A DNA stretch of 64,000 bases. It comes from Diadema setosum (lineage: Eukaryota). Location: positions 38,600,639 to 38,664,638 of the forward strand of contig NC_092698.1 in assembly GCF_964275005.1 (NCBI RefSeq), given 5' to 3'. Position numbers and translations under genes: made by a program. Each line of letters starts with the position of its first letter. The stretch's first letter is position 1. A model generated the notes under the pieces. That model was not told where the DNA came from. It saw nothing but the letters and a program-made list of their open reading frames with translations, and ran no database searches. Positions 1,317-61,484 of the stretch are shown one piece after another.

Positions 1317-1432
1317 TCAGTTACAGGTAGACCCTTGCTTGTACTCCTCGAATTCTTGTTGCCATCCAGTCAGTCCCGTTTTCCAGATACTAAAACTGTC
1401 TTGCCAATCCTTCTCTAGTTCGTCGATGTCTC
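1317..1432 (-). CDS. ChE-like-1 exon 10 (C-terminal Trp-heptad / T-peptide-like exon, including stop)
   Basis: Encodes RDIDELEKDWQDSFSIWKTGLTGWQQEFEEYKQGSTCN, then TGA at 1319..1317. Shows W-x6-W-x6-W periodicity and a Cys at position -2. Confidence 0.7.
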
Positions 1433-2455
1433 CTGATAAAGATAACGGAGAGGAATGACATGATTTATCACATTTCATGTGCTCCTAATTCTTTTCAAAT
1501 TCTACACTTTGCTTCCGAATATTTGAAGATACCTCAAAGGGTTGCACTGCTACGTAATGTAATGTGAGCAATGATGTTGAGCAGCGTTCCATCAACATGT
1601 TATCCGATCATTCACATCATTTTTAAAGTCTGAACTTTTCTAACGTGGCTGTCAAGGAAGCAGTGAATGCTTGTAAGTAAGCAACCACTCGACTGACGGT
1701 TTTAAGTCCCCTATCCGAAAGACAAGGCAATGAGGGACAAGTGCCAAGGAACACATCTGCCGCATCCAGGAGTATTCGAACCAAAAACCTTGGATCGACA
1801 CTCCATTGTCTTTTCCACTGAGACACAGCATCCAACCTTCGAGACAAGATATTACTTTAGACTTAGCTCTGACTTCCTCGTCTCCTCAAAACATGACCCT
1901 TTAAAATCGACAACACCGACTCACTTCCCAGCTCAGATTGGTTGTAGTAGACAGTATAACAGTTGAAATAATTTCCTTCCCAAAGCCATTTGTAACTTTC
2001 AATGGATTTTCAGCTATGTGGTAGAATACTGATAAATTCTCGTTTGAACTTTCAAAGTTTATAATCTCTTTCCTGTTTATAACAATAACTGTCAACCGTT
2101 GAAAGTATTCCTTCTCCTCTTGATATACCACTAATCCAAATCCAGCTTGGGACATCAAAGACATAATTATGGAATTATACAAGTACATGTACCTTCAAAC
2201 AACGGTTTTACCAATGCTTCTCGTTGCTAGTGTTGCTCAAGAAAGCCTATAATTATTTGTAATGACATAAGTAAAGCTAATTCAATCTTCGAGATTCAAT
2301 TTTCAAGATTTAATCTGACGATACTGGTATACCGCATGTTAAAGTGAGTTTTGGACCGTGTATTCAATAAGTAATATCAAACATTATATAGTCTGACCAT
2401 AGAATCAGATGTGAAATGTTTCTTTGAAATGACGGAAACTGACGTCTAGACTTAC

Positions 2456-2637
2456 TGGCATGAGTGAGAAGAGTGGGCATGTAGGAGTTCCAGAAGTGGC
2501 ACTGCCTGGCTCGAACAGCTCTACCGACTGCAAGGCCAGGAGCCAGCTCCTTGTAGTTGAGTTCAGGGATGGAGTAACTAGGCCAGAGATCCTCCCCGAG
2601 TCCAGGTTCAGCATCAACGCTTGGCTTGCTTGGATCA
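2456..2637 (-). CDS. ChE-like-1 exon 9
   Basis: Encodes DPSKPSVDAEPGLGEDLWPSYSIPELNYKELAPGLAVGRAVRARQCHFWNSYMPTLLTHA, then a gtaagt donor. Confidence 0.7.
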
Positions 2638-3351
2638 CTGAATGCATATCATTTCACAACTGAGATTTTGGACTGGTAGAGGATGGTGAAAATGATGGTG
2701 ATGATGGTGATAATGATAATGATAATGATGAGCAGCCTTTACATAGTGCTATATGTCTGTCGTATAAAGAACATTAAAGGGCACCTGGCTCCCACTTTAT
2801 ATGTCACGTATTATTCACAAAGTTGCTGGATGAAACTTTACAATATAATATGTAGAATGCATATCGCGTATTTCACAGCGTTTTACTACAGTGATAATTA
2901 GCATGGCTCTACTCTAGTCCATATTTAGTCAAGAATGTAGAACTTGCCATCCGCAAAGCACACGCCTTTTTTCCAGTTATTTCAACGTTTTTTTTTTTTT
3001 TGTTTTTTTTTTTTTGCCATATCGATATTGGCAAGAAAATTTTGAAATAAAGTAAACTGCTCAGTGACATAGTGATAGTTCTATTTTGGCTGTGACCCCC
3101 TCTGTTATGTTCATGAGGTTACATGTACATCACGTTAGAAATGATTTCAAGTGATCCTCAACTCCTTCCACAATGTTCGTCATGTTCTCTTCTGTACGTA
3201 CTCGTACATCATCTACGATAAATCTTACATATGTAATGGAATATCTACCATGTGGTATCAGTACAGATTTCTATATGGGTTCCATGTTTTCTTATTCTAT
3301 CATAGTTTAAAGTAACAAACAAAACCAAATCAAAGCTGTCATTGTGCTTAC

Positions 3352-3546
3352 CCAGATTTTGCGAAGTTTGTCCAGAACTCCATAAATTTAACGGAGAGGG
3401 TGTTTTCCTCGTCAGTCATGTTATGTCCTTTGATGTGGTAGAGCTCATCTATGAAGGGGATTCCCCAGACAAAGGTGATGTCCTCAGCGTGTCCCGCTCC
3501 AAGCCAGGGGGTTGTGGGGGTCAAACCCTGGTATTCAAAATAGCTC
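3352..3546 (-). CDS. ChE-like-1 exon 8 (catalytic His)
   Basis: Encodes RSYFEYQGLTPTTPWLGAGHAEDITFVWGIPFIDELYHIKGHNMTDEENTLSVKFMEFWTNFAKSG, then a gtaagc donor. Anchored on ORF 3348..3590. Confidence 0.8.
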
Positions 3547-4599
3547 CTGTACATCATAGTCGATAAAATGCACAGAAAAAACAACAACAAAGGTTTTAAA
3601 GCAATTTACGCTGGTTTATAAGACCAAAGGGATGTCACGGACAATTTCCTGAGAATGACTCAATTAATAGCCGCAATGTAAAGTTAATGGTATTTTCTCG
3701 TACAGATTATAATGTCAGTTTTAATTCTCTTTGCTGTGTTGTTCACCCATCATTGCTTTTAATAGTGCTAGATTTACGATTACTATTAGTATTAGTACCA
3801 GACATTGACTCTGAGGTATTCATTCAAACTTTGATAGGGCTGATAGGATGTATACGCATCTATTGGTATTCCAGAATCTATATCCAAACCAAATTATAGA
3901 GGGTTTTTGGAGTTTTTGGCACACATATCATGTTCCGCCGGGCACCACATAATATGTTTAGTCATCCGGCTGTTTATCTGTCTCGACCGATTAGACTAAC
4001 AATGGAAGAGTTATACACGTTGGTTTTCCCTATATCACTGCCATTGCGTCTCTATGCTGTATTGCTATAATGCTAAATATATGTATGTTATCGAGAAGTG
4101 TCATAATGTAAGGTGAAATAAAATTAAAATGACTTCGTGCGCTGTGATAGGGTGATATAGTTGTGCCAGTACAAATGTTTAAGTACATGTGCGTATTTTT
4201 TTTAATCTCTCGTCAATTTTCATTTGTTCCTTTTTCTATGTTTCTCTTTAGTCAGTGCAGGAGCATCATGCATCATCTCCAATAACAAGGAATTTGGAAA
4301 ATTCCATTATCTTATCGTCTTCAGAATGAAGCAAACTTGCTGACAAATAGCCAAAGATAAAGTAAAGATGCTCGTAAATGCTCAAATCATGAGAGAAGGA
4401 TACAACCAAGTTGTGTTCACTAAACTTCAACACGCGATCACAATCCACGTTTCAATGAAAAAAATGTGTTAATGCAATGCATTTCTATATACAATCCCAA
4501 TCCATGTTTTAATCTAATAAGTTGGTTAACATTTTGGTCTCATAGGTGTTGTTGGAAGATCGAGTCTGGCATGAGTTACGCAGCTTGGGCTTGGCTAAC

Positions 4600-5051
4600 C
4601 TTGTTGGTGCGTAAGGCATGTAGTATTTGTACACGGTCCCTCCTGCTTGATAGTGCGCCCTCACGAGTGCATCAGTTGGACAGTTGAAAGCGAAATCGCC
4701 GAAAAATGCAACCAGGGCATCAAAATACGAGGCGTTGGTGTTATCGTAAGTCGCCCAGTGTGTGTACTCCTGATCCACAGAATTGAGTACTATTTCATCC
4801 GGAAGCACGTATGAAGTGAGATAAGTATGCATGCTGGCAAGGTATACTTCTCGGCTGACAGGGGGCGGTGTTGGGCTTCCAATATATTCCGCGGCTGCCT
4901 GGTAAAGAAGAAGCGTCCCCTCGTCCTTGTTAAAACCGGTAAGAATGGGTATTTTCGCAAAGTCTCCCTTCCAGTAGAGATTTAGAGGAGAATCCTCGAG
5001 AAAGACGCCATCCAGGGTGACAGGGTAAACTGAATAATGGTCCGAGTAAAT
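4600..5051 (-). CDS. ChE-like-1 exon 7 (catalytic Glu region)
   Basis: Encodes IYSDHYSVYPVTLDGVFLEDSP...GFNKDEGTLLLY...FGDFAFNCPTD...VYKYYMPYAPT. Anchored on ORF 4509..5093. Ends in phase 2. Confidence 0.75.
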
Positions 5052-5861
5052 CTTCAAAAGAAATGATAATGTTCGAGGATATGAGTCATTCATTAATTTT
5101 ATATGTACATGTAGTTATATGCGTATAGCAGTTATCTTATCAAAATGCTTGCCGGGAAAAGACGATTATCTAAGCTTTTAACATTGAGTTTTGACTTGCT
5201 CGAGTTCGACAACATTCGTTATAAAACTATTGTCACGACGATAGTCAGCGTCAAAGACATCTTTAAAAGATTGCAGTGCGACACGCCTTCAACTTTCCTT
5301 TGGGTTGGAACCTCTTACAAATCGAGCCTGAACTAAACTTTTGTTGTTGCTGTTTTGTTGCTGACCTTACAAATTATAACGAAAGTAAATGTAAAACAAT
5401 GATGATGACAATATATATCATATATATTGGGTGTAAATGTGCGCAATGTAGAGTGGTGTGAATACAAATTAACAGTGAAGTCATTCAGACTCCAGCCAAG
5501 TACCGTTAGTACCCAGTTATTAAACCTAACAATAATCATGTTAATACTCTATATAATGCATTAAGACGACATCCATGTGCTTTTTATCCGTTATTTGAAA
5601 AAAAAAAATCTTTTACGAGGCAAGGAAGGCTTGGTTCACAAGTCATATATGAATTCATTCATGAACTTCATGAACTTCGGGAACTTGTATCCTTTGACAG
5701 TTAAGTAATATACTATGTATTGTTTAATCTACCTACACAGCGGGAGTTCTGCTTGAAAAGACCACAGTACGAGGGAGTCAAACAAATTGTTTATATACTT
5801 ATAAAATTCATAAAGCAATGCAGCCTGGGTAGGTGCTAGCTGATGAACTTGTGTTTAATAC

Positions 5862-6029
5862 CTGGTCAGCTGTGTTACTCAGGTTTCGGGCGTCTATTCC
5901 CCTCAGACACTCGACAAGGATAGATGATGTAGACACATCACAGCCCAGTGCTAGGCCCAGGTCTCGGGATAGCCGTCGTTCTCTGTCTGGGTCATCATCG
6001 AAGGCCCAACTACTGAACACATTCCCACT
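5862..6029 (-). CDS. ChE-like-1 exon 6
   Basis: Encodes SGNVFSSWAFDDDPDRERRLSRDLGLALGCDVSTSSILVECLRGIDARNLSNTADQ, then a gtatta donor. Anchored on ORF 5808..6020. Confidence 0.75.
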
Positions 6030-6669
6030 CTACACTCAACGATAGTGTCATGTGGTAAAATAAAATTGGATCGATTACGTCAGTAGAATTATGTGTGTGT
6101 GTGTGTGTGTGTGTGTTTGTGTGTGTGTTTGTGTGAATGACACAGACACTGTGACATCTTTTTCTATAGGTTTAATAGAAAACAGAAATTAATGCAATCA
6201 AAAATAGTATGTATCTACGATGCCCCGGAATAGGGATTAAACACGGCAATCTTATTAATTTATCTAGGACAGCAAATCATAAATGAGTTCAAGTTATGGT
6301 CGATTAGAATCAACTTGTGAGGAACTGTTTGATATATAGGTTAAAAACAAGAGTTGATCCCGGGATGTCAAACAAATTTTGAGTTTTTAATAATTATATG
6401 ATGATTACGCATGTGATAATTATGAGAGCATAATATTGAAAAAGCAATATCTGATCATTAGGTAACCATGGTTACGTATGCATGCATGACACAGGTTTTT
6501 GCCTCATGAAATTTACAGACAAGTATTGTTTTACAATGACTGTTTTGGAAGCATTGCCACCGTAGCTATCATGCTATGACTGGATTTTACCCATTACCGT
6601 CGTATCTCGTTTTGAAGAGCAAGAAAATTTGAATAGTTCGTACCGAACATTTCATCAGTGCTTTTCTTA

Positions 6670-6918
<249 letters not shown>

Positions 6919-7136
6919 TTAAGCTCATTACAAGTTAAAACAAGTTTATTCAAGTGATTTCCAACATTTTGACTGAACAATAGTTAAAACACTATCATAA
7001 CCCTTTGTGAAATAACTTGAAATTGTAGAGCACAGAGTATAAATGGACATTAAGTACTATCTTTATATAGATAAGCATGCATGATATTATAATTAAGGCT
7101 TTATGTATAATCCGTTGTCCTTTTTTTGTTTCATAC

Positions 7137-7214
7137 CTTCAATGTTTTCATAGATCCATTTAAGGGCTGCTGCTTGGTCAAGCATACCAACATTTCCCCG
7201 AGCTGAGTCATCCT
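7137..7214 (-). CDS. ChE-like-1 exon 4
   Basis: Encodes EDDSARGNVGMLDQAAALKWIYENIE. Acceptor tttccag, donor gtatga. Anchored on ORF 7131..7352. Confidence 0.75.
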
Positions 7215-7254
7215 CTGGAAATGAAATTGCATTTTATTGTTTGTTACTATCAAA

Positions 7255-7300
7255 TTATAACAAACAAACAAACAAACAAACAAACAAACAAACAAAAGAG
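7255..7300. repeat. (CAAA)n microsatellite in intron 3 of ChE-like-1
   Basis: caaacaaacaaacaaacaaacaaacaaa. Confidence 0.85.
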
Positions 7301-7737
7301 AACAAACAAGCAAAACAACAACAACAAAACAAAACAGCAAACAAACTACCACATTGCCTCACTCAGTTGTCTTCAATTCCCTTTAGTCTCGTACAGTTTT
7401 AATACATTAGAACGAGAAGTGAAAATCATATGTCTGTAATTACAGAATTCTAAAGTTTGCCTATCGCTTGGGAAGAACAAATGGCAACTTCAGAAACAAT
7501 ATGAACAATGTCCCTACGAACTCATCGTCATCTGATACAAGTTACTGAATACGAAACAAGCTACCGAACAACGAATAGTGGGAAAAATTTTCAGGGAGTG
7601 ACAAATTGTATAGACGTCAGAAAAAGACATATTATCGAGTATTAAAGTCATCGGTTTCCTATAGAGGTAGCAGTTGATCTTACTGAAACTGGCGTTACTA
7701 GATTCTAGCTCCATTCAATTGGCATATACATACTAAC

Positions 7738-7897
7738 CGGTGGAAAATTGTCCAAAGATTGCCAATCTGTAGTTGATTGCCACAACGATGACGTCACCCA
7801 CAACAGCCAATGGGACGCCGTAATAGTCATAGATCATTGCCGAGCCAGAGTTGAACGACCCCCCGTGAATCCACACCATAACTGCCATGCCTGAAGT
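7738..7897 (-). CDS. ChE-like-1 exon 3 (oxyanion-hole region)
   Basis: Encodes [53 protein letters not shown], then a gttagt donor in phase 1. Anchored on ORF 7733..8026. Confidence 0.8.
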
Positions 7898-8269
7898 CTT
7901 GAGTAAAACAAGCAATAATATGAATACCATCACAAAACAGAAAACCACTGTATACTTCACATACTGTATTTTTTTTTCAAGACATGCGTTTTTATACTTA
8001 TGCATCAACTTATTTTCTATTGACATTCAGTACCCGAGGGGCCCACGTTCTACAAGCTTTGTCTTTGTAGTGGGTCCCTCCATTATTCGAAGTTTGCGTA
8101 TTGCTATTTTATTTTCATCACTTTGATTTTTATGGCAACGTATAAGTATTGGTTCCACAATTATTTCATACTCTCCTCAGTTTACTTTGTTTTGCTTATG
8201 AAACCTGATTCTCTGTTATCAAGAAAGGGAAATGTCTATGTTCTTTTCGAAAAATGAAATATAGCTTGA

Positions 8270-8322
8270 ATTGAATTGAATTGAATTGAATTGAATTGAA
8301 TTGAATTGAATTGAATTGAATT
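8270..8322. repeat. (TTGAA)n pentanucleotide microsatellite, ~10 units, in intron 2 of ChE-like-1
   Basis: ttgaattgaattgaattgaattgaattgaattgaattgaattgaatt. Confidence 0.85.
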
Positions 8323-8393
8323 AAAAAGAAATGCTTACATAATAATAATTCTATATCATTATTAGCATTGATTGTTCTTTCTTCTCTACATAC

Positions 8394-8567
8394 CCTTGAT
8401 GTAGGCGCGTAGACGTTCAGATAGAGGCAATCCTCGGAGGTAAAAAAGTCAAAAGTGTTGGTCTGCTCACAAGCAGGAGAAAACTCCGTAGCATTCCTTT
8501 CCCCTGACCATGACGTCATATTGGTGGGCGGGGCAAATCGTATGGGCGGAGCCGCGTAAGGCACACC
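8394..8567 (-). CDS. ChE-like-1 exon 2
   Basis: Acceptor cag|GGTGTG. Encodes [14 protein letters not shown]...[28 protein letters not shown], then a gtatgt donor. Anchored on ORF 8196..8564. Confidence 0.8.
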
Positions 8568-9626
8568 CTGTAAGCATGATTAACATCTTTCAGTCAGGAA
8601 CATTAAAAACACACATAATCAATATTAGATATTTACAAACAATAATCCTCTGAAATTCGATATGCTAGCAACGACCAATTTTCCCGTTAAATACAGGTTG
8701 TACATGCACTATCCGTGTCATAAATCATCGGTGCTAACAATTTTGATGTACAGCAGTCGGTCGAAGGCAACATAGGTAAGATGTTCACTGTGCTAGGATT
8801 AAGTTGTGGTTTAAAGTTTAATCAAATGGATTGTAAAAGAGTCCGCCAATACGCCATCAAGGCTGGCACCGAAGGAAACAAGTGTATAGATAATTGGCCT
8901 ATCGATGTGGATTGTGCTGTTTTAGCTCATGCACTCTATTTCTCGGAAACATAACAAATTTGTCATTACCATGGATGTTCCTGAAGTTTGCCAGTAAACC
9001 AGTTTGCTCAATTAACCAGAACTTATGACATGATCATGAAGAAAAAAAAATGTCTCATGACTTGACCTTAAAACATTTACGCGGTGATATTATGCCCTCT
9101 GGTATGGAAATGTCCATTGATTCATATTTTCTCGCGAGATAGATTTTCTTCATGCATAATGCTTATCGAGCATTACTGACAGGATAAAGGATGAAGTCAG
9201 TCATGTCAATCCTCAAATCCAAATGAAAGTAAAACTTGATTTGGTCTACTACTTGGGAAAAACAATAGGGATTTCGATGTGATAATCACATCACCAAAAG
9301 GAAACGGCGAATTCAAGTTGCCATAATTGGCACTATGCGACAGCCAAGCTGTGTCAACTGCATAATCATTTCTTAAAGTGAAAATTTTTTGTTTATGTCC
9401 TCAACATTATGCATTTTACAGAAACGAAATCGACGAGATGATGTCGAAGCCGTGAATTCTAGGACTCAATCCTGTGACAGAGTGATTTTCTGTCTCTAGA
9501 TATATCACAGTCTGTAACTTTACAAAAAGTTCCACGAGAGAAGTTATAATTGTTTCTTTTTTTTTTTGTCAAACAAATGATTCGCGCCTTGCTCGAGGAA
9601 AGAGAAACCCGAACATAAGTCCTTAC

Positions 9627-9788
9627 CAGAAACAAGTCGACATCTCGGGTCTTGTTGATGAACCTGTTTTCACTGAAAGTGATCGTCTTTCCTACCAGAA
9701 TTCCTTCCTTAACTGTGACTCGGGGACTTTCAGCACTTGCAAAGCCCACTGTGATAATCATAACCAGCACAATTTGATGAAGCGCCAT
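9627..9788 (-). CDS. ChE-like-1 exon 1 (signal peptide plus N-terminus)
   Basis: ATG at 9788..9786. Encodes MALHQIVLVMIITVGFASAESPRVTVKEGILVGKTITFSENRFINKTRDVDLFL, then a gtaagg donor. The Met aligns with the start Met of paralogs 3 and 4. Confidence 0.8.
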
Positions 9789-12335: not shown

Positions 12336-12451
12336 TTATTTGCAGGTAGATTCATTTGTGTATTCCTCAAACGCCTGCTGCCATGCTGTCATCTCCGTCT
12401 TCCAGTCACCATAACTTTCCCGCCATTCCTTCTCCAATTCGCTCATATCGT
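12336..12451 (-). CDS. ChE-like-2 exon 10 (C-terminal Trp-heptad exon, including stop)
   Basis: Encodes DDMSELEKEWRESYGDWKTEMTAWQQAFEEYTNESTCK, then a stop. Anchored on ORF 12336..12545. Confidence 0.65.
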
Positions 12452-12684
12452 CTGGATAAAATGAATATAAATCCAAGGTAATATGAATATTTTCTTGTGA
12501 ACAACAATTTGTCAGTCCTCTGTATGTTAATTCCTGTCCGGTCATTGAAGAACTGATTATAGTGGTAAAACATTATATCATATATATATATATATATATA
12601 CATATGCCTAATATGCTCTGCTTTACAGCATTGAGCACTTTTCAATCCTCAACAAACTACATATTCCCGACGGATATATACCAA

Positions 12685-12734
<50 letters not shown>

Positions 12735-13217
12735 TGTGCATTTCGAGTAAGTTTGTTATAATCAATGATTTGACTGAGTGTAATGCTAACACTCTTACAA
12801 CATACACAAACAAAAGGAAGATCCTAGCGGTATCGATTTATTTGTTGATAAACGAAGTGGTCAACGTTATACAAGTAGGCCCTAAAATAAATAGTTAAAA
12901 ATAAAAGTAGGGAGGGAATGTTCATTACGTCAGAAGACCAAATTTGAGATGAAGTGAGCGTCTCCTCCTGACAGTATGTCATATTAAGTATATCATCATT
13001 GCAAACATACAATCCTTGTTATTGTGGTGTTTAATATCTATTCCTCCATGTAAATATAACATTAGATATGTCTAGATCAGTGTATTACTCCTTATAATAG
13101 AATAGACGGATATATCATGATCTATCACCATTAAAATGAAACTGCAAAAGAAAGCCTGACCCTTAATGCATGTACTTTGAGATCGAGCTAAACGCAAAGA
13201 AGTGGCATGAATCGTAC

Positions 13218-13399
13218 CTGTGAAGTCAGCGAGGGAAGGAATGTACTGGTTCCAGAAATGGCACTGTCTGGCTCTAATAGCCCTCCCTATGAGTAGTCCT
13301 ACAGTCATCTCCCTGTATGTGAGTTCAGGGATCGTATACTCTGGCCAGGCGTATTGTCCTTCCCACGAGTCTGAATCCATGCTCGGCTTACTGGGATTT
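13218..13399 (-). CDS. ChE-like-2 exon 9
   Basis: Encodes NPSKPSMDSDSWEGQYAWPEYTIPELTYREMTVGLLIGRAIRARQCHFWNQYIPSLADFT. Anchored on ORF 13072..13473. Donor gtacga. Confidence 0.7.
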
Positions 13400-17962: not shown

Positions 17963-17971
17963 GGCCGTATA

Positions 17972-18012
<41 letters not shown>

Positions 18013-18162: not shown

Positions 18163-18169
<7 letters not shown>

Positions 18170-18219
<50 letters not shown>

Positions 18220-50034: not shown

Positions 50035-50150
50035 TAATTGCAGGCAGGTTCATTCTTGTATTCCTCGAACGCCTGCTGCCATGCTGTCATCTCCGTCTTC
50101 CAGTCATCATAACTTTCCCGCCATTCCTTCTCAGTGTCACTCAAGTCGTC
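50035..50150 (-). CDS. ChE-like-4 exon 10 (C-terminal Trp-heptad exon, including stop)
   Basis: Encodes DDLSDTEKEWRESYDDWKTEMTAWQQAFEEYKNEPACN, then TAA. Approximate. Confidence 0.6.
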
Positions 50151-50928
50151 TGGAAAGAGAGGGAGAGAGAATGAAGAATCGATGTGATTATCAAAATTAT
50201 TGCGCTTTCCTTTTATAGCTCACATTCGCATCCTGATTTGTCAACCCGTGCGCCAACCAATGGCAAAACTAAAAAAAAACGTTTTGGAGTTGCTTTGCTG
50301 CCGACACATGTTTTTTTTTTAATCATCTCATATTCTTAATGCATTCTGTGATTGATGACATCTGTACCCTATTTCATAAAAAAAAAGAACAAGATGGCAC
50401 ATTTTGACTCTTTACCTTAGGAGACAAAGTCGATGTAAAAGAAAAAATCGAAAAGGCGAAGATGAATTACGTTATTCCACTTATTGGTCTGTTTCGAACA
50501 TGAATCAATTTTAGAACTCGATCATTAGCCTTTCTTATAACATCTGTGCGACTAGTCTGATTGACGAATAAAAGCAGCCGTCTAGTATCGAGATGATACG
50601 AAATTACATGGTGCATTGCGCACCAAACTTTCAAATCTTTGGTTTATACAAAACGAAACTTTTTGAATGTGCAAAGGGGCTGGAGTCAGCTATACTTAGC
50701 TGTAGGGTTGATTGCTTAACGATATGATGATGGTTTTAGGTCATTGGTTTTTCCTAATATCAGTGAACAATTATGGAACATACACACTGACTGACAGACA
50801 GACAGACAGACACACACACACACACACATACACACTTCCATTCCTCCACACTTGAAAACCACGGATGCAACCTGTCAAATCTAATATGTAGTATAATGAA
50901 GTGATCATGGTCTCGAAAAAAAAAATAC

Positions 50929-51110
50929 CTGTAAAAGCCACGAGGGATGGGAAGTAGTGGTTCCAGAAATGGCACTGCCTGGCTCTGACGACCCTCCCTG
51001 TGGGCAATCCTATAGCTATCTCCTTGTACGTGAGTTCAGGGATCGTGTACTCTGGCCAGGTGTACTGTCCTTCCCACAGGTCTGAATCCATGCTCGGCTT
51101 ACTGGGGTTT
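50929..51110 (-). CDS. ChE-like-4 exon 9
   Basis: Encodes NPSKPSMDSDLWEGQYTWPEYTIPELTYKEIAIGLPTGRVVRARQCHFWNHYFPSLVAFT. Anchored on ORF 50771..51139. Confidence 0.75.
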
Positions 51111-51384
51111 CTACGATACATATAATAGTTGCTATCCATTAATGCATTAAGTTCTTGTTGTTTAAGTGCCTGATCCTCACACTGTCACATGCAAAATGGA
51201 ATCAATGTTTCTAAATGCACTCAGAATTTAACTGATAAGGAATTTTGTCTTCAGTACAATACAAACAAGAACATCATCTATCCAGAACTTTTCATCACAG
51301 ATTAGAGGTATTTGTAACTTTAAAAAAAAAAGAAGAAGATATTAGCAAACTATTTCATACCAGTGAATCAAATGACTGGCTTAC

Positions 51385-51579
51385 CCGGTCTTGGCAAAGT
51401 TGGTCCAGAATTGCATCATCATAACGGAGAGGGCGTTCTCCTCGTCAGTCATGTTATGTCCTTTGACGTGGTACAGCTCATCAATGAAAGGGACGCCCCA
51501 CACAAAAGTCATTTCTTCTCCATGTGCTGCGCCAAGCCAAGGAGTGTTGGGAGTAAATCCTTCGTACTCATAGAAGCTC
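51385..51579 (-). CDS. ChE-like-4 exon 8
   Basis: Encodes KSFYEYEGFTPNTPWLGAAHGEEMTFVWGVPFIDELYHVKGHNMTDEENALSVMMMQFWTNFAKTG, then a gtaagc donor. Anchored on ORF 51381..51695. Confidence 0.8.
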
Positions 51580-52701
51580 CTGGAAAAAAAAAATATCATG
51601 CTGTTCTTACCAACACAAAACAACGGATAAGAAAGAATACTTAAATGAGTTTGGAAAGTCTCTAACTGAATAAAAGTTGAAATTATTGAATTCACTCAGC
51701 ATGCCAATACCTCATCTTTTTCTCTCTAAAAGTGTCAGAAGAAAAAAAAAAGGATCGACATCATTTTACCCACTTCAGGATTAGGTTGCATCTGTTTTGG
51801 GTTTGAGAATGGCAGACAATTTTATTTTGTAAATTATGTATTGATGTGTCGCCAATTACAAATAATGCTCGTGTTTAACCAAGGTGGGGTGAGATTTTCC
51901 AGGCTTGACAGACCAAGTAACACATAATAATTTCATGAAATAATAATTATTACAAACTTCATGATTAAGTTCTGTGAGAAAAATGCTTCCAATTACGGGC
52001 ATTAGGGAAGCCTACTTATGTTGCTGTGTAACTATAATTATGACCGATCACAGAAGATAGGCAGGGCTAGTCAGGTAGGTGATAGAGAGAGAGAGGGGGG
52101 GGGGGGGTCCTCCCAGGTCTTTTGTCATAAATCACTAAATAAAACTCCAAAAGGGTATATTTTTGGTGTACATATTCTTTCTACTGTTCTTCAAAAATGT
52201 GAGTGAAAAATTGTGCCATCAAAAATAATTTCTCAAGTATTCTGTTGTTTCTTTAATTTCTGACGTATTTCCTTGTTTGTCGACTTTTTTCACTGTCTTT
52301 GTCGGCGACTCTGTTGAGAGCGTAAAAATAATATGTTACCTACTGAATTCAATCGATAAAAGCAAAAATAACCATTTTTCAAATGAAATTTGACCGAAAG
52401 TACATTTGCATTAAAATTGTACATGAATTCAAGTTTTTGAGCAATTTTAGGTCTGACAAGCATGTATATAATATTTATGCGTAATTTTAAAACCGCTCGC
52501 CCAGGCGACGCAAATTTGATCTCAGAACGAGCGGGAGACTGGAAAGAAAAAGAGTCGTGAAACATCGCGGCGATAGATGTTGTTGGTTTTTTTTTTTTTC
52601 GATAGTGACGTATCGCGTGAAATGTCGAAGGGGGGCTACCAGCAAACCCCCCCCCCCCCCCCGACTTAGTACGGGTTGAAGGAACTGCTAGTGATCCATA
52701 C

Positions 52702-53147
52702 TTAGTAGGTACGTGGGTCATGAAGTACTGATAGACGGGTCCGCCGCGTGATGCATGTGCTCTAGTGACATAATCAGTTGGACAAACGAACAGCAAATCT
52801 CCATAGAAATCCACCACTGAGTCGAAGTAATCCGCAGTACTGTTGTCTGCAATACTCCAGTCGGTATACTCCTGGTCTACAGAGTCGATTATGATCGCAT
52901 CCTCCAGACCGTTGTAGAGAGTCAGCTGGATTTGAATCGAAGCAAGGTAGGTAGCTCGGTCGTAAGGGGGCGGTGTTTCGCTACCCGCGTAGGTCGGAAA
53001 AGCTACGTATGGTATCAAAGTCCCCTCGTCCTTGTTGAAGCCCGCAACGATTGGTACACGGGCAAAATCTCCGTTGCTGTAGAGGTTTTTTGGTGTATCT
53101 TCGAGAAACGTACCGTCCACAGTCACTTGATACCCTGCAACATATAC
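52702..53147 (-). CDS. ChE-like-4 exon 7
   Basis: Encodes VYVAGYQVTVDGTFLEDTPKNLY...GFNKDEGTLIPY...YGDLLFVCPTDY...VYQYFMTHVPT, then a gtatgg donor. Anchored on ORF 52290..53126. Confidence 0.75.
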
Positions 53148-53598
53148 CTGAACATCGTGGTGGCGGAAGAGGGATACTATTCACAGACCAAAACTAATAA
53201 TGTGTGAATAACCTGTTTGACAAAGCATAATCTTATAGTCTATTAGGTGATACATGAAGTGTTGGCGGCTGACAGTTTGCGCATGTCACAATCGTTAACA
53301 TTAATAATTGTAATGGTTTGAAGTTCTTGATCGTAGTTACTGAAAACTGTACAGGCAACATCGTGTGTTGGTGTGTACACCACCAATCTGTCTACGAATC
53401 CTTCGCGCGCGTGCGCACGCACACACACACACACACACACACACAAGTTGAATTTTCTCAGCGGGTGTTAATTGCGTACAGAGGCTTGGAAATTGAGCAA
53501 AATTTGAAACCTAACTCCAGAAATAAGCATAAAATTTGTAAAATTTATATAAGCCACTTCCAAACAATTTACATTTTAGCTATTACCAGTGTCAATTT

Positions 53599-53644
<46 letters not shown>

Positions 53645-53938
53645 CATCTTGTGATACAGATGTTATATGAATGGATATTGCAGAAAAATCTAGGAAATTA
53701 TGATTTTTTTAGAGGGAATCAATGTTGTTGTCAATCCAGTAGAAACATTTTCCACTTCTTTTATAGTAGAGGTGATGACATTATCGCGTTATCTAGTGTG
53801 ATCTGTCATCTCATAATGTTTCATGAGAAAATGTGAGAGTTGATACTTCTACTACTCATCTATGATTTTACCCTATCCATGTCCATCCACGAAAGCCCAT
53901 TAACTGGTGGAATGATTTTCTCTTCAGATACAAGGTAC

Positions 53939-54139
53939 TATAAATGGTGCACCACGTTGCCATGGCAGCCATACCTTATCAGCGGCCTTCCTGAGTTCTT
54001 CAGCATCCTTCTCTCTGAGACATTCCACCAGAGCCTCAGAACTCGACGTGCTGCATCCCATGGCCACGCCCAGAGCTCTCGACTGCTCAAGCTCTCTCTC
54101 CGGATCGTTGAAAGCCCAGTCAGCCAGGGCTGTCCCACT
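53939..54139 (-). CDS. ChE-like-4 exon 6
   Basis: Encodes SGTALADWAFNDPERELEQSRALGVAMGCSTSSSEALVECLREKDAEELRKAADKVWLPWQRGAPFI, then a gtacct donor. The frame-shifted ORF 53938..54138 fixes both ends. Confidence 0.7.
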
Positions 54140-54344
54140 CTACATCAGTATTAACATAAACGGGAAATGAAATAGGTCACTGGAATGTATCCGGAGAAAA
54201 CATACATAGAAAACACCAGATGCACAAGTAAAAACACTGAAATACTGTCCAACTTTTCACGGAATGTTATCATGTAAGTAGTTTTGGGGAAGAACTTTTA
54301 AAATGATGGCACACGAAATTTGAAGTCATCTTTTAGTTGAAGGA

Positions 54345-54650
54345 CAAAGATATCCTGTCTCGGATAACTGATAAGTGCCAATAGTAACCTATAGTGAGTC
54401 CCATCACACGAAAACACCAGGATTGGTTCGATGACAACAACGAACGCATTTAGTCTTTGCTGGAAGAGAAACATTGTCTCCACCGAGCATTCCTCAATGA
54501 CTCGACATCAGCGCCCAAGAAAGCTGCTTTTTGCAACATCAGAGGAAACGTACAGTTGGAGCAACGGCAAATGTAGGATGCATGCTAAACGATAAAGCTG
54601 ATAAGATCCAGTCTTATGCTGATTGCAACGACATGAAAAACTTCTACAGA
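54345..54650 (+). mobile_element. LINE remnant (same family and same site as 35479-38652) in intron 5 of ChE-like-4
   Basis: Shares the 5' junction ttgaaggacaaa with the ChE-like-3 copy. Retains a ~300 bp internal segment alignable to 36160-36400, then rejoins flank that is alignable to ~38795 onward. Confidence 0.5.
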
Positions 54651-55360
54651 GCGCTCAAGAGACAAATGGGTAAGCTCGAAAGAAAATGGAAGAACATACT
54701 TAATGAAGAGCACTCTTAATATGGCTACATGTAACTACACAAGAAATGATTTATAGATATTGAGTTTGTTTTTTTTTTTGTTGAATAACATGATGTGGAG
54801 AATTTGGAGAATTTTTTTTTTCAGATCTGTATGTAACAATTGAGAAGCAAAGAACACCAACTACCTTGATTGTATCAAGTAATGTATATTTTTAATGTGA
54901 CTTGTATGTGTTTCTATCTTTTATATGCAATTGGAAAATGAAACCAAATCAAAGAGAGAGAGAGAGAGAGAGAAAGCAATGCGAACAAGGAGAACTGAAA
55001 CAACTGGCATGATAATAATTCGAGTCAAATTACTCATATCACGGAACACCCTACAAACATTGCGACAATACATTAGCGGGCTAATTAGTTTGTTCTTGTG
55101 AATGAAGCATGCATGTTATACACGTGCAAATATTTACATTGACAAGTACAACGACAAAAGATACTGTGGATCATGAGAGCATGGCTCTTACGGAGAGTAT
55201 AGTTTATTGATTATGAAATTGAGAACTCATGTCATGGTACTTGCACTTTAACACCGTGGAAGTTCTCGGACTGGTAAATTCTCAGACCTGTATAACAAAG
55301 TGTACTCTCTCTTGGTGTGGTATACTTGCAATTCTTTGTCACATTAATTTTCTCTGCTCA

Positions 55361-55651
<291 letters not shown>

Positions 55652-56326
55652 TCATGATAAATACAAAGAAAATCAAAAGATGGAGAGTGATAGACAGATG
55701 ATCATAATAAATGCATGGATAGATCCCAAAAAGATTATCTGGCAGACTTTATAAAGAGAAAGGAAATAGAAAAAGAAATATATATCAAGAAATATGTAAC
55801 TTATTATCAAAATGATGAGACTCAATACTAAAAAAAAATGGCTGAATTCAGAAATGTGTTCTGAAGTCGTTAACTCATGCTGAAACTATACTCAGTGTAT
55901 TGCGTTCATTACTCCATGTGGTTTGTTACGCTCAAAACCACTGTTCCATTTTGTACAAACGGACAATAAAGCTGACGACAACCTGAGGTCGAAAGATTCT
56001 ACCACCAGCCGGCATCGTGTGACATCTACTGTCTTCATTGTCTCCATTATATATATTATAGGTACACGTATTTCTGTTCAGTCATACAGTCTTATGGAAA
56101 TCAATAGACACGTTCCTTTGTTTTTAATTACTGACAATATCTGAGATATTAACTGTCAACACTGAATCCTGCAGTATCTTGCAACCTGCATTTGCTATGT
56201 CAATGCATGTATCTGCATTTACTATGATTAATTAAACAGATAGTAAATACATAAAATCAAGGCATTAATGCAATATTTTTCTCAATATCAGATACCTATT
56301 TTGCTCTGATACCTTGGTATTATTAC

Positions 56327-56404
56327 CTTCAATGTTAGTATAGACCCACTTGAGAGCTGCTACCTGATCCAGCATACCAACATTACCAGGAGCTTCTTCA
56401 TCAG
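56327..56404 (-). CDS. ChE-like-4 exon 4
   Basis: Encodes ADEEAPGNVGMLDQVAALKWVYTNIE. Approximate. Confidence 0.6.
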
Positions 56405-56817
56405 CTGGTAGAAAAATGAGATTGAAATGAGTTATTTCTTGAAATACAGGTGTAGAAAGTAATGTCAGGAATGACTAATCAGAACAATGTCCGTATTTCT
56501 ACGTATTACATGAGCAAATCGCTCCGTTTTATATTCATTAGGCATCTGTGGATCAATAGCGTCATTTGAACTATTTTTTGTTTAATCTTGTTTGGAGCGG
56601 GGATATCTGCCTACTTTATCTTCATATCTTTTCTTCTTGGAAGTCAATAGTTATTTTGGATCCATCGACAGGCTGTATTGACGTGCTGTATCTTAATCTT
56701 TAGCTTCTATATTCCATTATGAATGCATTCGTCACACATGATCTAAACAGTTGAGACAAAACATCTTAAAAACACACACACACAAAAAGTATTGTTTATT
56801 ATGTGATAAGAACTGAC

Positions 56818-56977
56818 CTGTGGTGAAAAAAGAGAAAACGTTCAGGCGGTAGTTGATAGTTACGATTATGACGTCACCGACAGAGACCAATGGGACGCCG
56901 CTGAGTTCCGCTGTCATCGCGGTTCCAATGGAGAAACCACCACCGTGAATAAAGACCATGACCGCAGCACCGTTAAT
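56818..56977 (-). CDS. ChE-like-4 exon 3
   Basis: Encodes INGAAVMVFIHGGGFSIGTAMTAELSGVPLVSVGDVIIVTINYRLNVFSFFTT. Anchored on ORF 56732..56986. Confidence 0.75.
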
Positions 56978-57660
56978 CTTTATCAATCAAAACAGCATTG
57001 ATAATTGCATTTATTGTGGAATTATTATTCATAGCCCATGGATTGACACTTATCACAGACAAAAGCATTTTGAAGAATTTGACATTCCATGCTAAGAAAG
57101 ATCATTGAATTTCCTCTCCATATTATAAAAAAGATTATTATGTGTTTGATATGCCATCAACAGAACACATTTGTCCTAATAAATATAGACAAATAAGTGG
57201 TTAAAGGATCATCATTATATATTATTTTATTCTATTCTATTAAACTATTATTATTATAATATTATCATTATTGTTGTTGTTACAATTATCATTATCATTA
57301 TTATATAATGAAAGGAAAGTCCGAAGCCATTCTATTTACTCTAAATGAAATTTTGAGTATTCAACGAAGTGTCATGTACACTATATGCTTCTAAAATAGG
57401 ATAATGGGTTAGGCATAAAATAATGCCTGTTTGTTTTCATTCTACATTGTGTGAGAAAAAATGTTTTGAATTAATCATTTATCTGTTTTTATTGTCAGAT
57501 TCAAATTGTATTGTGCTCAATTAGTTCGTTCAATTGACTTTGTATTTTATTTATGTATGTAAACGAAATTCAGAAATTTATTCAAAATCAATTAAATCAA
57601 ACACCACCGCTTTGTAGTAAAAACTCTAGCGCAAATACACTTGCCCTTGATGATTCCTAC

Positions 57661-57846
57661 CTTTGGGTTTGGAGCAAACACGTTCAAATACAGACAGTCT
57701 TCTGACATCTTCTCGGGAGGCGGGAAAAACTCAAATACACCTTGCTGACACACAGCTTCAAATTCCGTAGCGTTCCTTTCTCCTTCCCATGACGTCATGT
57801 TTGTGGGCGGGGCGAATCTCTCAGGAGGGGCTGCATAAGGCACCCC
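57661..57846 (-). CDS. ChE-like-4 exon 2
   Basis: Encodes [62 protein letters not shown]. Anchored on ORF 57592..57843. Confidence 0.8.
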
Positions 57847-58202
57847 CTATACATTGGTAAAAATAAAATAACAAATACAATCAAACAAGGCTAATTGTGA
57901 GGAAATGATAAAGTCAATGCCTCCATAGAAGTTCAGGCTTACGGTGAAAAGGGTTTTACCGTGCTTACAACCTGACTAGATATAATACATCCCAAGCAAA
58001 TTCACATCATTGCTAAACCTTTCTAGGTTTTTTTTTTTCAATGTTTTACCAATCTTGCAGTAATTTTAACGACTAGCGTTGAACATCTTTAGTAATCATG
58101 AATATTTACATGTGAAATCAACGACTCTATTTGTTTTACTTTGTTTTTGTCTGCTTTCTTGTTTGGTTGTTGTTGTTGTTGTTGTTTTTTGAAAATGGAG
58201 AT

Positions 58203-60470
58203 TCAGTTCAGTTCAATTTATTCATTTCATAAAATCACATATAAAATATTTACATAAATGTGTGAGTCAAAGGAGGAAATCACGCAAAAGCCCATCAGGG
58301 CTTGGAAATGGAGATTCCCTTTACAATATAGTTTAAAATCACAGTTTTGAATGAAACATATATATATATCAAAATAGAACTTAGATTAGAGACCGTTACA
58401 AAATCAACAATATATTATGATGGAAACAGGAAACAGGAAACAAAACAACGACTAAACCAATACAATATATTACAATACAATACAATACAAAACAAAACAA
58501 ACATGCACGGTATTTGTCAAAGGTTTGTATGAGAATTGCACAATTTTCATCATTCATTCATAATAAACAATCAGTACAGATTAAGAAAAAGCTGCTTATA
58601 TTGAGTCATAAAAAGATTCAATGTGTTAGCAGTTTTCAGTTTCATGCTTAACATGTTCCACAATTTAGCCCCTTTGTACTTTATTGAGTTGGACTGACTA
58701 ATTTTCAGACGATAAAATGGTGAAACATAGCATTGTTTATTTCTAGTATTGAAAGAATGTTTCTTGGCATGAGTAGAAAAATAGTCATTGAATATATCTG
58801 GCAAGACTGAGCGAACATATTTATACATAAAAATTCCAAGTTTGAATGAAATTCTGTCTCGAAAATTTAACGTTTGCAAGTCCTTAAATAATGGAGGGGT
58901 GTGGGCAAGATTGAGGGAATTTGTACAAAGGCGAATGGCTTTCTTTTGGAGGACCGTTAGCCGATCTAATTGTCTCTGGCTGGTCCCTGACCAGACGAGA
59001 TTACAATAGTCTAAGTACGGCAAGATAAAGGCATTGTAAAGCATCAACAGTGTATTTTTCGGGATTAACGAACGAAGCTTGAACATCATACCAAGTGCAA
59101 CACTTATCTTTCCATGGACATAATTTATATGGTTATTCCAGGACAACTTTTCGTCAATATACACCCCTAACACATTTATTGTGGCAACCTTTTCAATTTC
59201 ATTATTACCAATTTTTATAGAAAAGTTTGGATAAAAATTGTATATGTCTTCTGGAAGATTGAAAAATCATATATTTCGTTTTACTAATATTCATTTGTAG
59301 TTTATTTGCCTTGAACCAGTTGCGTCAGGATTGCACTTCTTCATTAACAATTTGGTTAAGCATTTTCTGATCAGAATGTGAATATATAATATTGATATCA
59401 TCAGCATAAATTACAAAACGAAAAACTTTCGATGAATTGATGACAACGTTGACATAAATCAAAAAGAGAAGAGGGCCAAGGATACTACCTTGGGGCACGC
59501 CATGAGATACGGGCATGAGGTCCGACTTAGCACCGTTGAACCTGGTGTATTGTTGTCGTCCACTCAAATAATCAACAAACCAAGAATGAGGCACACCACG
59601 AATACCATATAGTGTTCTAGCTTGTGCAAGAGTATGTTATGGTCCAGTGAGTCAAACGCTTTGCTCAGGTCAATGTACATAGCCAAAGGAATTTCTTTCT
59701 TTTCGAGGGATAAAATGACTTGTCCCAAGGTGTGTAACAATGCTGATTCTGTCGAAGAGGAGGGCCGAAAACCAAATTGTTCTTTTATGAGAAGGTCATT
59801 TTCGGACAAATGCTTATACAATCGTTTATATACAATGCGTTCAATTATTTTGGAGAAAGTTGGAAGAAGAGAAATTGGTCTATAATTTTCTATCAAAAAT
59901 CTATTATTCTTCTTATAAACAGGAATTACCTTTGCAAGTTTGAGGGAGTCTGGGACCTTACCTGGGCATAGCGATTGATTAAATATAAAACACGTGATCT
60001 ATGTAACAAAGAATAACCTGGCATATTGTAAAGGGAGGACACATTCGAGTTAAACCAAGTCTCAGTGAAAGCATGCATTGCGAATTTATGGCAAAGGCTA
60101 CTAAGATAGTCGGCTAAACATTCGTGCTTTGCAGACAAACTCTGAGCATTCAAATGAAATAGGGAGAACACAGCCTCGTTTTGACATTTTAGAAATTTGT
60201 GATTGAAAGTGTCATTGAAATAATAATTGCATGGACTTTCTAGATTATTGATGGAGACATTATCATCACTATTCATGCCAAACACTTCAAAAACGTGGGA
60301 GTTAAGGCCTGATTCAAATGAGATATCACTGCTAGAGTAGTGAAAAAAAGAGAATAATTCTCTGTGAAAATCATCATCTTCAAGTATGTGGTTAAATGGC
60401 AATTCGTTAGATATACACGGAGGACAGATATAACATTTTGGGTTTAAGTGCAGCGAACAGCTTGACATGT
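58203..60470 (-). mobile_element. Non-LTR retrotransposon (CR1/L2/RTE-like LINE), decayed, in intron 1 of ChE-like-4
   Basis: Minus-strand ORF pieces 59926..60555, 59564..59896, 59325..59594 and 58571..59173. They carry AP-endonuclease-like motifs (...FTETWF...) and reverse-transcriptase motifs (QFGFRPSSST, IDLSKAFDS, GVPQGSILGPLLF, VIYADDINI). At least three frame disruptions. The insertion is bounded by sequence that is contiguous in ChE-like-3 (42121-42170). Confidence 0.7.
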
Positions 60471-61322
60471 AGAATCGGGTGGGTCGTGCGGCTGTCATCG
60501 TCTGTATTAGAAGATAAGTCTTCTGAATGGGCCATTCCAACATCTCACCAAACATGCTGCAAGAATGTTTCCTAGTGTGCTAAGAAGAAATAATTTATTC
60601 TAGTGCACCAGTAAGTGAGACTGCATACTTGTGAACCAAGAGGTAAGAATGTATAGATACTGGTGTACATAGAGGTATGTAAGAATGTACAGTATGTCCC
60701 AAAAACAATTACAATCAGATTTTCGCATTGATAACACCCAATATGATTGAACTATCTAAATGCTACTTCAGGGTCTTAAAATATAACATCTTAGCTCTAT
60801 TTTGCAGAAAACTCCATCCGATTTGGTTAAGCGGTCACAGAGAAATGTGGATTGTTGTAAAAGCATGTCATGAGTCTGATTCTTCCAAGTTTAGTACTTC
60901 GATGATTTCGTGTGTGAATACACTAGACAGAACTTGGAGGGAAGAGATTCCTGACATCCTCTACAAAATTCCTCATTTCTCTTTGACCATTGAAGCAAAT
61001 CGAATAGGGTTTTCTGTAAGTTGTTGGCAATAAGTTATACTTTCATACCCTGAAATTGTATTTGGATTGATTCACTATTCTTAAAGCTATCATTGTGGAG
61101 AGTACCGTTGTAATTATTTTTGGGACATACGGTATAGATACTGGTGTACTAAGAGGTACATAAGAATGGGATACTGGTGTACTAAAATATAAGAATGTAT
61201 AGATACTGGTGAACTAAGAAATAAGAATGGTTACCAGTGTACTCAGTGGAAGTCAAGTATAAGCCTACAACTCCACTTCAAAAAGCTGGCCGTGTTTCTT
61301 TCTTCTTCTTTTTTTAACTCAC

Positions 61323-61484
61323 CAAAAAAACGTCGACATCTCGAGTCTTGTTGATGAATCTGTTTTCACTGAAAGTCACCGTCTTTCCCACCAGAGTTCC
61401 TTCTTTCACCGTAACTCTCGGATTCTCAGCATTTAGTGGCGAGAAAATGGGAAAAATTGCCAGCAAAGTCCACAATAGCCGCAT
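61323..61484 (-). CDS. ChE-like-4 exon 1
   Basis: ATG at ~61484. Encodes MRLLWTLLAIFPIFSPLNAENPRVTVKEGTLVGKTVTFSENRFINKTRDVDVFL, then a gtgagt donor. 162 nt, as in paralog 3. Confidence 0.65.

Follow-up and report, generated by a model that had tools for sequence, protein, structure and literature searches.

Tandem cholinesterase-like carboxylesterase genes in Diadema setosum: three intact copies and one hit by lineage-specific insertions

Tandem carboxylesterase clusters that evolve by birth and death include the mammalian CES genes and the insect alpha- and beta-esterase clusters. In this study, we analyzed a stretch of 64,000 nucleotides from the sea urchin Diadema setosum (the window) containing four type-B carboxylesterase genes, paralogs 1 to 4. 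Arranged head-to-tail on the minus strand, they have 10 exons each, in the case of paralog 2 in its ancestral form. The intron phases (0,0,1,1,0,0,2,2,1) are common to the paralogs, and exon sizes are near-identical. All four proteins matched the PF00135 profile with E values of 8e-127 to 5e-133 and scores of 425-445 bits, where the curated cut-off is 27. Profile positions 2-515 were covered, or 21-515 for the truncated RefSeq model of paralog 2. The initial annotation had described four same-strand, cholinesterase-like carboxylesterase genes sharing a 10-exon, same-phase layout, and both the GT-AG models, at the coordinates given below, and the family alignment agreed with it. The four-gene cluster is already present in the public annotation and is a case of ordinary birth-and-death gene-family evolution. 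NCBI names the genes cholinesterase-like or acetylcholinesterase-like, and the family counts over 20 members in Diadema. A fifth close paralog of D. setosum, XP_072173621.1, shares 94% identity with paralog 4. Neither tRNA genes nor Rfam families were found when the whole window was scanned. A literature search returned genome papers for both Diadema species and nothing specific to the esterase cluster. Our overall reading, to which we assign a probability of about 0.93, is a tandem array of secreted cholinesterase-like genes, three of them intact, in which paralog 2 was hit by lineage-specific insertions. The four genes belong to a large family of type-B carboxylesterases in echinoderms, cholinesterase-like and predicted to be secreted.

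Three of the four genes have complete frames and canonical splice sites. Paralog 1 (1317-9788, minus strand, active-site motif GESAG) has exons at 9788-9627, 8567-8394, 7897-7738, 7214-7137, 6890-6772, 6029-5862, 5051-4600, 3546-3352, 2637-2456, and 1432-1317, including the stop codon. Its GT-AG model encodes 601 aa and is identical to XP_072173527.1, annotated as cholinesterase-like (PF00135, E 8e-127). Paralog 3 (31561-42632, minus strand) carries GVSAG instead of GESAG, and its exons are at 42632-42471, 41852-41667, 40984-40825, 40422-40345, 39725-39607, 35267-35103, 34285-33840, 32710-32516, 32242-32061, and 31676-31561. Paralog 4 (50034-61484, minus strand, GESAG) has exons at 61484-61323, 57846-57661, 56977-56818, 56404-56327, 55608-55490, 54139-53975, 53147-52702, 51579-51385, 51110-50929, and 50149-50034. 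The GT-AG models of paralogs 3 and 4 encode 602 aa each and equal the D. setosum RefSeq proteins XP_072173758.1 and XP_072173751.1; like that of paralog 1, they match letter for letter. The earlier description of paralog 1 as intact with 601 aa was therefore correct, and the 614 aa it gave for paralogs 3 and 4 was 12 residues too long. Each of the three proteins has a predicted signal peptide, an alpha/beta-hydrolase core, and a tail with Trp heptads, encoded by the last exon, like the T peptide of acetylcholinesterase (AChE). Against Diadema antillarum, NG86 gave a dN/dS of 0.07 for paralog 1 and 0.19 for paralog 3; for the pair of paralogs 3 and 4 it was 0.30. Thus paralogs 1, 3, and 4 are under purifying selection, and the view that the array members are at different stages of decay did not hold, as lesions were found in paralog 2 only. 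NG86 dS between paralogs 1, 2, and 3/4 was saturated.

Paralog 2 (12336-28521 in its ancestral form, minus strand, GQSAG) was reconstructed by tblastn with the D. antillarum orthologue and by direct reading. Its ancestral exon 1 now lies in three pieces, 28521-28444, 26809-26785, and 22002-21935. Exons 2 to 10 are at 21025-20849, 20093-19934, 18681-18604, 16628-16510, 15868-15701, 15107-14665 (acceptor lost), 13871-13677, 13399-13218, and 12451-12336. Insertion 1 (26810-28443; 1,634 bp) follows codon 26 and is bordered by direct copies of AATGTT at 28449-28444 and 26809-26804, with no terminal inverted repeat. Its start, TGTCACAGTG, recalls Transib or RSS heptamers, and this assignment was dropped because a matching inverted end is absent. 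Insertion 2 (22003-26784; 4,782 bp) lies at codon 32/33 between direct TAG duplications at 26787-26785 and 22002-22000. It has terminal inverted repeats of about 540 bp (22003-22541 and 26263-26784) with the termini TAGTAG(A/G)CTTGC. A 2-bp TA duplication, as in Tc1/mariner, and other duplications were considered and rejected, since only the 3-bp TAG gives gap-free inverted termini together with a restored frame. Pfam searches on the reading frames of both insertions and of the 28.5-30.2 kb intergenic region gave no matches. At both D. antillarum loci (L001 and L002), the two sites are unoccupied. Once the two insertions and a single copy of each direct duplication are taken out, exon 1 is 162 nt long and the frame has 599 codons, as many as the D. 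antillarum orthologue (P0002). The third lesion is at the exon-7 acceptor (15105-15112, minus strand), which reads TTTCCAT|ATTCAT here and TTTCCAG|ATTCAT in both D. antillarum copies. An automatic splice choice had placed a phase-2 junction between exons 6 and 7, and this was rejected on inspection because the ancestral acceptor is gone. The claim that paralog 2 is broken was thus confirmed by the 1.63 kb and 4.78 kb insertions and the lost acceptor. Two transposons inserted into exon 1 in the D. setosum lineage, with loss of the exon-7 acceptor in addition.

Two insertions and a CAG-to-CAT change, none of which D. antillarum has, disrupt the coding sequence of paralog 2 relative to its orthologues, as is expected of an unprocessed pseudogene. 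However, relaxed constraint was not seen; exons 2 to 10 are free of stops and frameshifts, with a dN/dS of 0.15 against D. antillarum, which is compatible with very recent inactivation. RefSeq annotates the gene as protein-coding (XP_072174380.1; 576 aa, 13 coding exons, 12336-23752, minus strand). The ATG of this model, at 23752, is within insertion 2, an acceptor at 22013 is in the transposon terminus, and two micro-exons of 5 nt (22947-22943) and 14 nt (15388-15375) are used, the latter followed by an acceptor at 15093. The N-terminus, MSKVCKPTIGK, showed no hydrophobic signal sequence on inspection. Because nine exons are open, dN/dS is low, and RefSeq calls the gene coding, loss of function is putative. 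Paralog 2 could instead be a remodelled functional gene, in which the transposon supplied a promoter and first exon and the two micro-exons complete a 576-aa intracellular esterase without a signal peptide. The 13-exon chain is open, has GT-AG junctions throughout, and reproduces XP_072174380.1 exactly, and such small micro-exons would hardly have been picked without transcript support. On the other hand, the product has no signal peptide and misses about 31 residues of the fold at its N-terminus. Six of its Cys residues correspond in alignment to the three disulfides conserved in secreted cholinesterases and would be ill suited to the cytosol. Broken paralogs are also routinely patched by gene-prediction pipelines to hold the frame. 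Moreover, the low dN/dS is equally expected if the lesions are recent, because most of the divergence time passed as an intact gene. We therefore regard a functional gene as unlikely. Paralog 2 is probably a pseudogene of very recent origin; at best, it would be a truncated gene that lacks a signal peptide and is transcribed from within the transposon.

The active-site elbow G-x-S-x-G reads GESAG in paralogs 1 and 4, GQSAG in paralog 2, and GVSAG in paralog 3. In the alignment to Torpedo AChE, this motif falls on Ser200, NKDEG or NRDEA on Glu327, and G(A/T/G)H(G/A/S)E on His440. The triad and a tail resembling the T peptide are found in all four paralogs. The Glu before the catalytic Ser (Glu199) is kept in paralogs 1 and 4 and is replaced by Gln in paralog 2 and by Val in paralog 3. 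Among 130 homologues, this residue was Glu in 101, Gln in 12, and Val in 7. Two D. antillarum orthologues of paralog 3, P0001 and P0126, carry GVSAG as well, and so does copy A. Esterase activity is predicted for the four genes, and because the Glu before the catalytic Ser is replaced, normal activity is uncertain for paralogs 2 and 3. It is a long shot that these two array lineages left ordinary esterase function yet stayed under selection. Paralog 3, with GVSAG kept in both Diadema species and a dN/dS of 0.19, could then be a catalytically altered or non-catalytic T-tailed protein. Paralog 2 could be a transposon-rescued gene whose new promoter and first exon direct an intracellular esterase-like protein.

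A still less probable reading is that the four genes are true acetylcholinesterases ending cholinergic transmission. Among solved structures, those most similar to them are Torpedo and human AChE and BChE (E 1e-99 to 1e-84), and the NCBI names point the same way. For paralog 4, the best match is Torpedo AChE (6euc, E 1e-99), and the alignment extends through the end of the T peptide. The fold family, the Ser-Glu-His triad, the HGG oxyanion motif, and the three disulfide Cys pairs are shared with the vertebrate/Torpedo T subunit. So is a separate last exon encoding a tail with three Trp 7 residues apart and a C-terminal Cys. With phmmer, the tail aligned to the Torpedo T peptide at this spacing, terminal Cys included; PF08674 (AChE_tetra) scored 16.5-18.3 bits on the C-terminal tails, under its cut-off of 25. 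Alignment of the catalytic core is good, with many substitutions elsewhere. However, the Trp84 loop has a 9-residue deletion relative to 6euc, the loops from Cys to EDCLYLN of all four paralogs are without Trp, and the choline-binding site is not conserved. The shortened, Trp-less loop argues against classical acetylcholinesterase, and the four paralogs are not demonstrated AChEs. In addition, the Glu adjoining the catalytic Ser is gone from paralogs 2 and 3, and a family of more than 20 Diadema genes is better explained by esterase diversification than by a synaptic role.

Paralogs 3 and 4 lie in duplication units of about 14 kb, both on the minus strand. The unit with paralog 3 (30249-44193) is covered by collinear blastn blocks to 48833-63300 at 67-86% identity. 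The unit with paralog 4 spans 48833-63786, and its far upstream end (63298-63786) matched 48219-48693 by blastn. Weighted DNA identity is about 80% across about 11.5 kb, flanks included, with block E values of 0 or near 0. The proposal that the two copies can be aligned over whole units, with 5' and 3' flanks, was borne out by these blocks. Alignment gaps revealed two degraded non-LTR retrotransposons. One (35478-38804, plus strand) is in intron 5 of paralog 3 and absent from paralog 4; its reading frames are fragmented and match RVT_1 weakly, at E 2e-5 and 1.5e-4, which does not reach the Pfam cut-off. The other (approximately 58055-60579, minus strand) is in intron 1 of paralog 4 and absent from paralog 3, with RVT_1 matches at E 4.5e-15 and 3e-11. 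An assembly artefact in which two haplotypes were joined in tandem was considered, since the D. antillarum cluster is found on two contigs that resemble haplotype copies. It is refuted by the divergence: the units are only about 80% identical and several kb of insertions apart, and the proteins, active-site motif included, differ at 11% of their residues. D. antillarum also has distinct copies, some grouping with paralog 3 and others with paralog 4. The array expanded as whole units of gene plus flanks were duplicated in tandem, probably through unequal crossing-over, and its remodelling is ongoing.

The D. antillarum cluster (GCA_040938485.1, contigs JBFRCO010000276.1 and JBFRCO010000533.1) has the same gene order and orientation, with 82-96% identical non-coding DNA and shared GVSAG and GQSAG motifs. 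The orthologues of paralogs 1, 2, and 3 are 97%, 91%, and 96.5% identical at the protein level. In contrast, exon 1 of D. antillarum paralog 2 is uninterrupted, and the exon-7 acceptor is intact. The paralog 3/4 type has three copies on L002, one more than in D. setosum, and the 4-kb inverted-array insertion found upstream of D. setosum paralog 3 is absent. Exons 1-8 of paralog 3 match D. antillarum copy A, and its 3' end matches copy B, with a candidate recombination breakpoint near 32.0-32.4 kb. The dS of paralog 4 to all three D. antillarum copies was 0.17-0.21. Orthology of paralog 4 to one particular copy is thus unclear, and gene conversion may blur the history. One disrupted member and a copy number that differs between the two species fit the birth-and-death evolution initially proposed for this cluster. 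The roles suggested along with it, xenobiotic metabolism or neurotransmitter hydrolysis, are putative.

The cluster offers a clean, small example of this process, with unit duplication, a copy-number difference between congeners, and a gene apparently knocked out by dated lineage-specific insertions. Beyond annotation quality, its significance is small. Two RefSeq models deserve curation, namely D. setosum paralog 2, stitched together via the 5-nt and 14-nt micro-exons, and D. antillarum XP_071499740.1, in which two neighboring genes are fused. The names "cholinesterase" and "acetylcholinesterase-like" should not count as evidence for acetylcholine hydrolysis in echinoderms.

Compared with the D. 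setosum RefSeq genes, nothing differs for paralogs 1, 3, and 4, whereas paralog 2 is annotated as coding and in the DNA has a split exon 1 and a lost acceptor. Like the mammalian CES and insect esterase clusters, the Diadema array consists of head-to-tail paralogs, with copy number unequal between related species and occasional pseudogenes. The Diadema genes differ in belonging to another clade, cholinesterase-like with a T-type tail, and any link of theirs to xenobiotic resistance would be hypothetical.

When rough concatenated exon-like frames were used as a protein query, the top-ranking matches were all echinoderm "cholinesterase-like" proteins, the best of them from Diadema antillarum. 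The window is AT-rich (G+C about 37%) and clearly of eukaryotic character, and microsatellites are abundant. The paralog models were refined by GT-AG junctions. Paralogs 1, 3 and 4 were placed on the minus strand at 9788..1317, 42632..31561 and 61484..50034, and the ancestral form of paralog 2, guided by its orthologue, at 28521..12336. Each gene has ten coding exons of near-equal size across the four paralogs (exon 1, 162 nt; exon 2, 174-186 nt; exon 3, 160 nt; exon 4, 78 nt; exon 5, 119 nt; exon 6, 165-168 nt; exon 7, 443-452 nt; exon 8, 195 nt; exon 9, 182 nt; exon 10, 116 nt), and the intron phases 0,0,1,1,0,0,2,2,1 are common to all of them. In a protein collection search, the paralog 1 product was letter-for-letter XP_072173527.1 (601 aa) of D. 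setosum RefSeq; the products of paralogs 3 and 4 were likewise identical to XP_072173758.1 and XP_072173751.1 (602 aa each). The window is therefore part of a D. setosum chromosome, and its genes already have annotations. The models agree with the initial annotation on the gene ends (1317, 31561, about 50035 and 61484) and on 601 aa for paralog 1, and they correct the length of paralogs 3 and 4 from 614 to 602 aa.

The initial annotation had also called paralog 2 broken, which was correct in substance. The D. antillarum orthologue P0002 (599 aa) was aligned to nine open exons of paralog 2. Its first 31 residues were absent at the expected place and were recovered further upstream by sensitive search, so that exon 1 lies in three minus-strand pieces with two insertions between them: codons 1-26 at 28521-28444, codons 25-32 at about 26809-26786, and the remainder at about 22003-21935. 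The first insertion (28443-26810; 1,634 bp) has direct AATGTT on both sides. The second (26784-22003; 4,782 bp) has terminal inverted repeats of ~540 bp, termini TAGTAG(A/G)CTTGC, and direct TAG on both sides. Removing both insertions and keeping one copy per duplication gave an in-frame exon of 162 nt (...KVNVAEGILLGKTVRF...), and both copies of the locus in D. antillarum have this exon uninterrupted. A third lesion affects the exon 7 acceptor: TTTCCAT|ATT in D. setosum stands against TTTCCAG|ATT in each of the two D. antillarum copies. No stops or frameshifts were found in exons 2-10, and dN/dS against D. antillarum was 0.15. Either the damage is therefore recent, or the gene is still in use in some form.

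The RefSeq model of paralog 2, XP_072174380.1 (576 aa), was reproduced exactly by a 13-exon, all-GT-AG chain. It starts at an ATG within the second insertion (23752), uses a 5-nt micro-exon (22947-22943), and joins the exon 1 remnant at an acceptor located within the terminus of the transposon (22013). A 14-nt micro-exon (15388-15375) spans the lost exon 7 acceptor. The resulting N-terminus, MSKVCKPTIGK, is without a signal peptide, and the first exon of this model is likely transposon-borne. Codons 16-18 of the ancestral exon 1 (28474-28466) contain a perfect phase 0 donor consensus, AAG|GTGAGT, which D. antillarum shares; splicing from it to exon 2 would preserve the frame and bypass both insertions. 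Intron 4 of paralog 2 (16885-17512) holds a ~220-bp tandem repeat with many G and C homopolymer runs, which recurs inverted within the exon 1 insertion (24405-24903) at 84-89% identity.

A further element of ~4.0 kb lies upstream of paralog 3 (44194-48218). It consists of two inverted arrays (44244-45169 and 47081-48133) of a ~160-bp tandem unit, with termini TAGTGGAGCGG.../...CCGCTCTACTA and a 3-bp direct duplication (TTT) at its flanks. The element is absent from the corresponding D. antillarum site (contig 533, JBFRCO010000533.1, about 8417) and also from the paralogous site upstream of paralog 4 (63298-63300). It looks like a foldback-type transposon that was active after the species split. 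The 22003-26784 and 44194-48218 elements both terminate in TAGT(A/G)G, carry long inverted ends and are flanked by 3-bp duplications. They may be members of one transposon family; no transposase reading frame was found.

Self-comparison showed that 30249-44193 is collinear with 48833-63300, and 48219-48693 with 63298-63786, so the proposed duplication units of about 14 kb with flanks are real. Blocks were 67-86% identical, about 80% when weighted across ~11.5 kb, and the gaps are insertions. One such gap is a degraded plus-strand LINE in intron 5 of paralog 3 (35478-38804); a degraded minus-strand LINE occupies intron 1 in paralog 4 (at about 58.06-60.58 kb; RVT_1, E 4.5e-15), and the ~4.0-kb element upstream of paralog 3 accounts for another gap. 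Within intron 5 of paralog 3, a 187-bp block (36204-36390) is 86% identical to 54469-54651 in paralog 4 intron 5. Exon 9 is unusually conserved between paralogs (paralog 2, 13215-13401, 85% against paralogs 3 and 4), which hints at local gene conversion. Read-through of the exon 9 donor keeps the frame open for ~50 codons in paralog 4 (50929-50774; …VAFTGIFFFETMITSLYYILDLTGC…), and the D. antillarum RefSeq protein P0128 (567 aa) terminates in the equivalent sequence; in paralog 3 (32061-32044), a stop follows after 6 codons. The read-through could be an alternative C-terminus or a mere annotation by-product.

Protein identity was 89% between paralogs 3 and 4, 63% between paralog 1 and paralogs 3/4, and 57-62% between paralog 2 and the others. 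Identity to the D. antillarum orthologues was 97%, 91% and 96.5% for paralogs 1, 2 and 3. A rough neighbour-joining tree placed paralog 3 with copy A of D. antillarum. Paralog 4 fell with D. setosum XP_072173621.1 from outside the window and D. antillarum copy X, and paralog 2 with Diadema genes of other loci. By these groupings, the paralog 3/4 duplication happened before the two species diverged. On one D. antillarum contig, three open copies of the 3/4 type (X, A and B) lie ahead of paralog 2. Exons 1-8 of D. setosum paralog 3 with their introns resemble copy A (92.4% over 12.4 kb), and exon 10 with the 3' flank resembles copy B (92.3%). This mosaic is the pattern expected from unequal crossing-over between neighbours, which would have either deleted a segment in D. 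setosum or duplicated one in D. antillarum. The dN/dS values of 0.07 for paralog 1, 0.19 for paralog 3 and 0.30 for paralog 3 against 4 indicate purifying selection on the intact copies. The array had been described as being at different stages of decay; this holds for paralog 2 only.

The D. antillarum RefSeq model XP_071499740.1 spans 33 kb (contig 533, 10001-43289) and apparently fuses exons 1-7 of copy A with exons 8-10 of the gene that follows, copy B. Copy A has its own open exons 8-10 (20042-21517), and a 275-aa fragment model is called within the span; XP_071499740.1 is probably a chimeric annotation. Contigs 276 and 533 carry the same cluster with near-identical genes (P0003/P0122, P0002/P0129 and P0126/P0001, the last being XP_071499740.1). 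They may be two haplotypes, because the sizes quoted for the drafts are 1.73 Gb for one D. antillarum draft, not necessarily the assembly used, and 886 Mb for D. setosum.

RefSeq already contains these genes, and annotation also exists for the orthologous cluster of the sister species. The literature search gave genome papers for both Diadema species, and no paper on the cluster was found. Carboxylesterase genes commonly occur in tandem arrays that include an occasional pseudogene. What is new is confined to the lesion anatomy of paralog 2, the first exon that its transposon probably supplies, and two doubtful RefSeq models; these details are useful to curation and otherwise unsurprising. It is improbable that paralog 3, with its GVSAG motif, and paralog 2, in its transposon-initiated form, have taken on new roles under selection.

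All four paralogs gave full-domain matches to Pfam COesterase (E 1e-127 to 5e-133), and the nearest solved structures were Torpedo and human AChE and BChE (E 1e-99 to 1e-84). The alignment with Torpedo AChE 6euc extends to the end of the T peptide. The Ser-Glu-His catalytic triad, the HGG oxyanion motif and three disulfide Cys pairs are kept. The last-exon tail has three Trp at seven-residue spacing and a near-terminal Cys, and scored 16-18 bits against Pfam AChE_tetra (cut-off 25). Unlike in true cholinesterases, the loop that holds the choline-binding Trp84 in Torpedo AChE is 9 residues shorter and lacks Trp in all four paralogs, and the Glu before the catalytic Ser is replaced by Val in paralog 3 and by Gln in paralog 2, substitutions also found in the D. 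antillarum orthologues. Neither departure sets these genes apart from the rest of the echinoderm family. In a set of 130 homologues, the position before the Ser held E 101 times, Q 12 times and V 7 times, and Trp was missing from 69 of the 71 loops that could be delimited at the Trp84 position. The four genes are therefore best filed, from their predicted products, as type-B carboxylesterases of the cholinesterase-like clade and not as demonstrated acetylcholinesterases.
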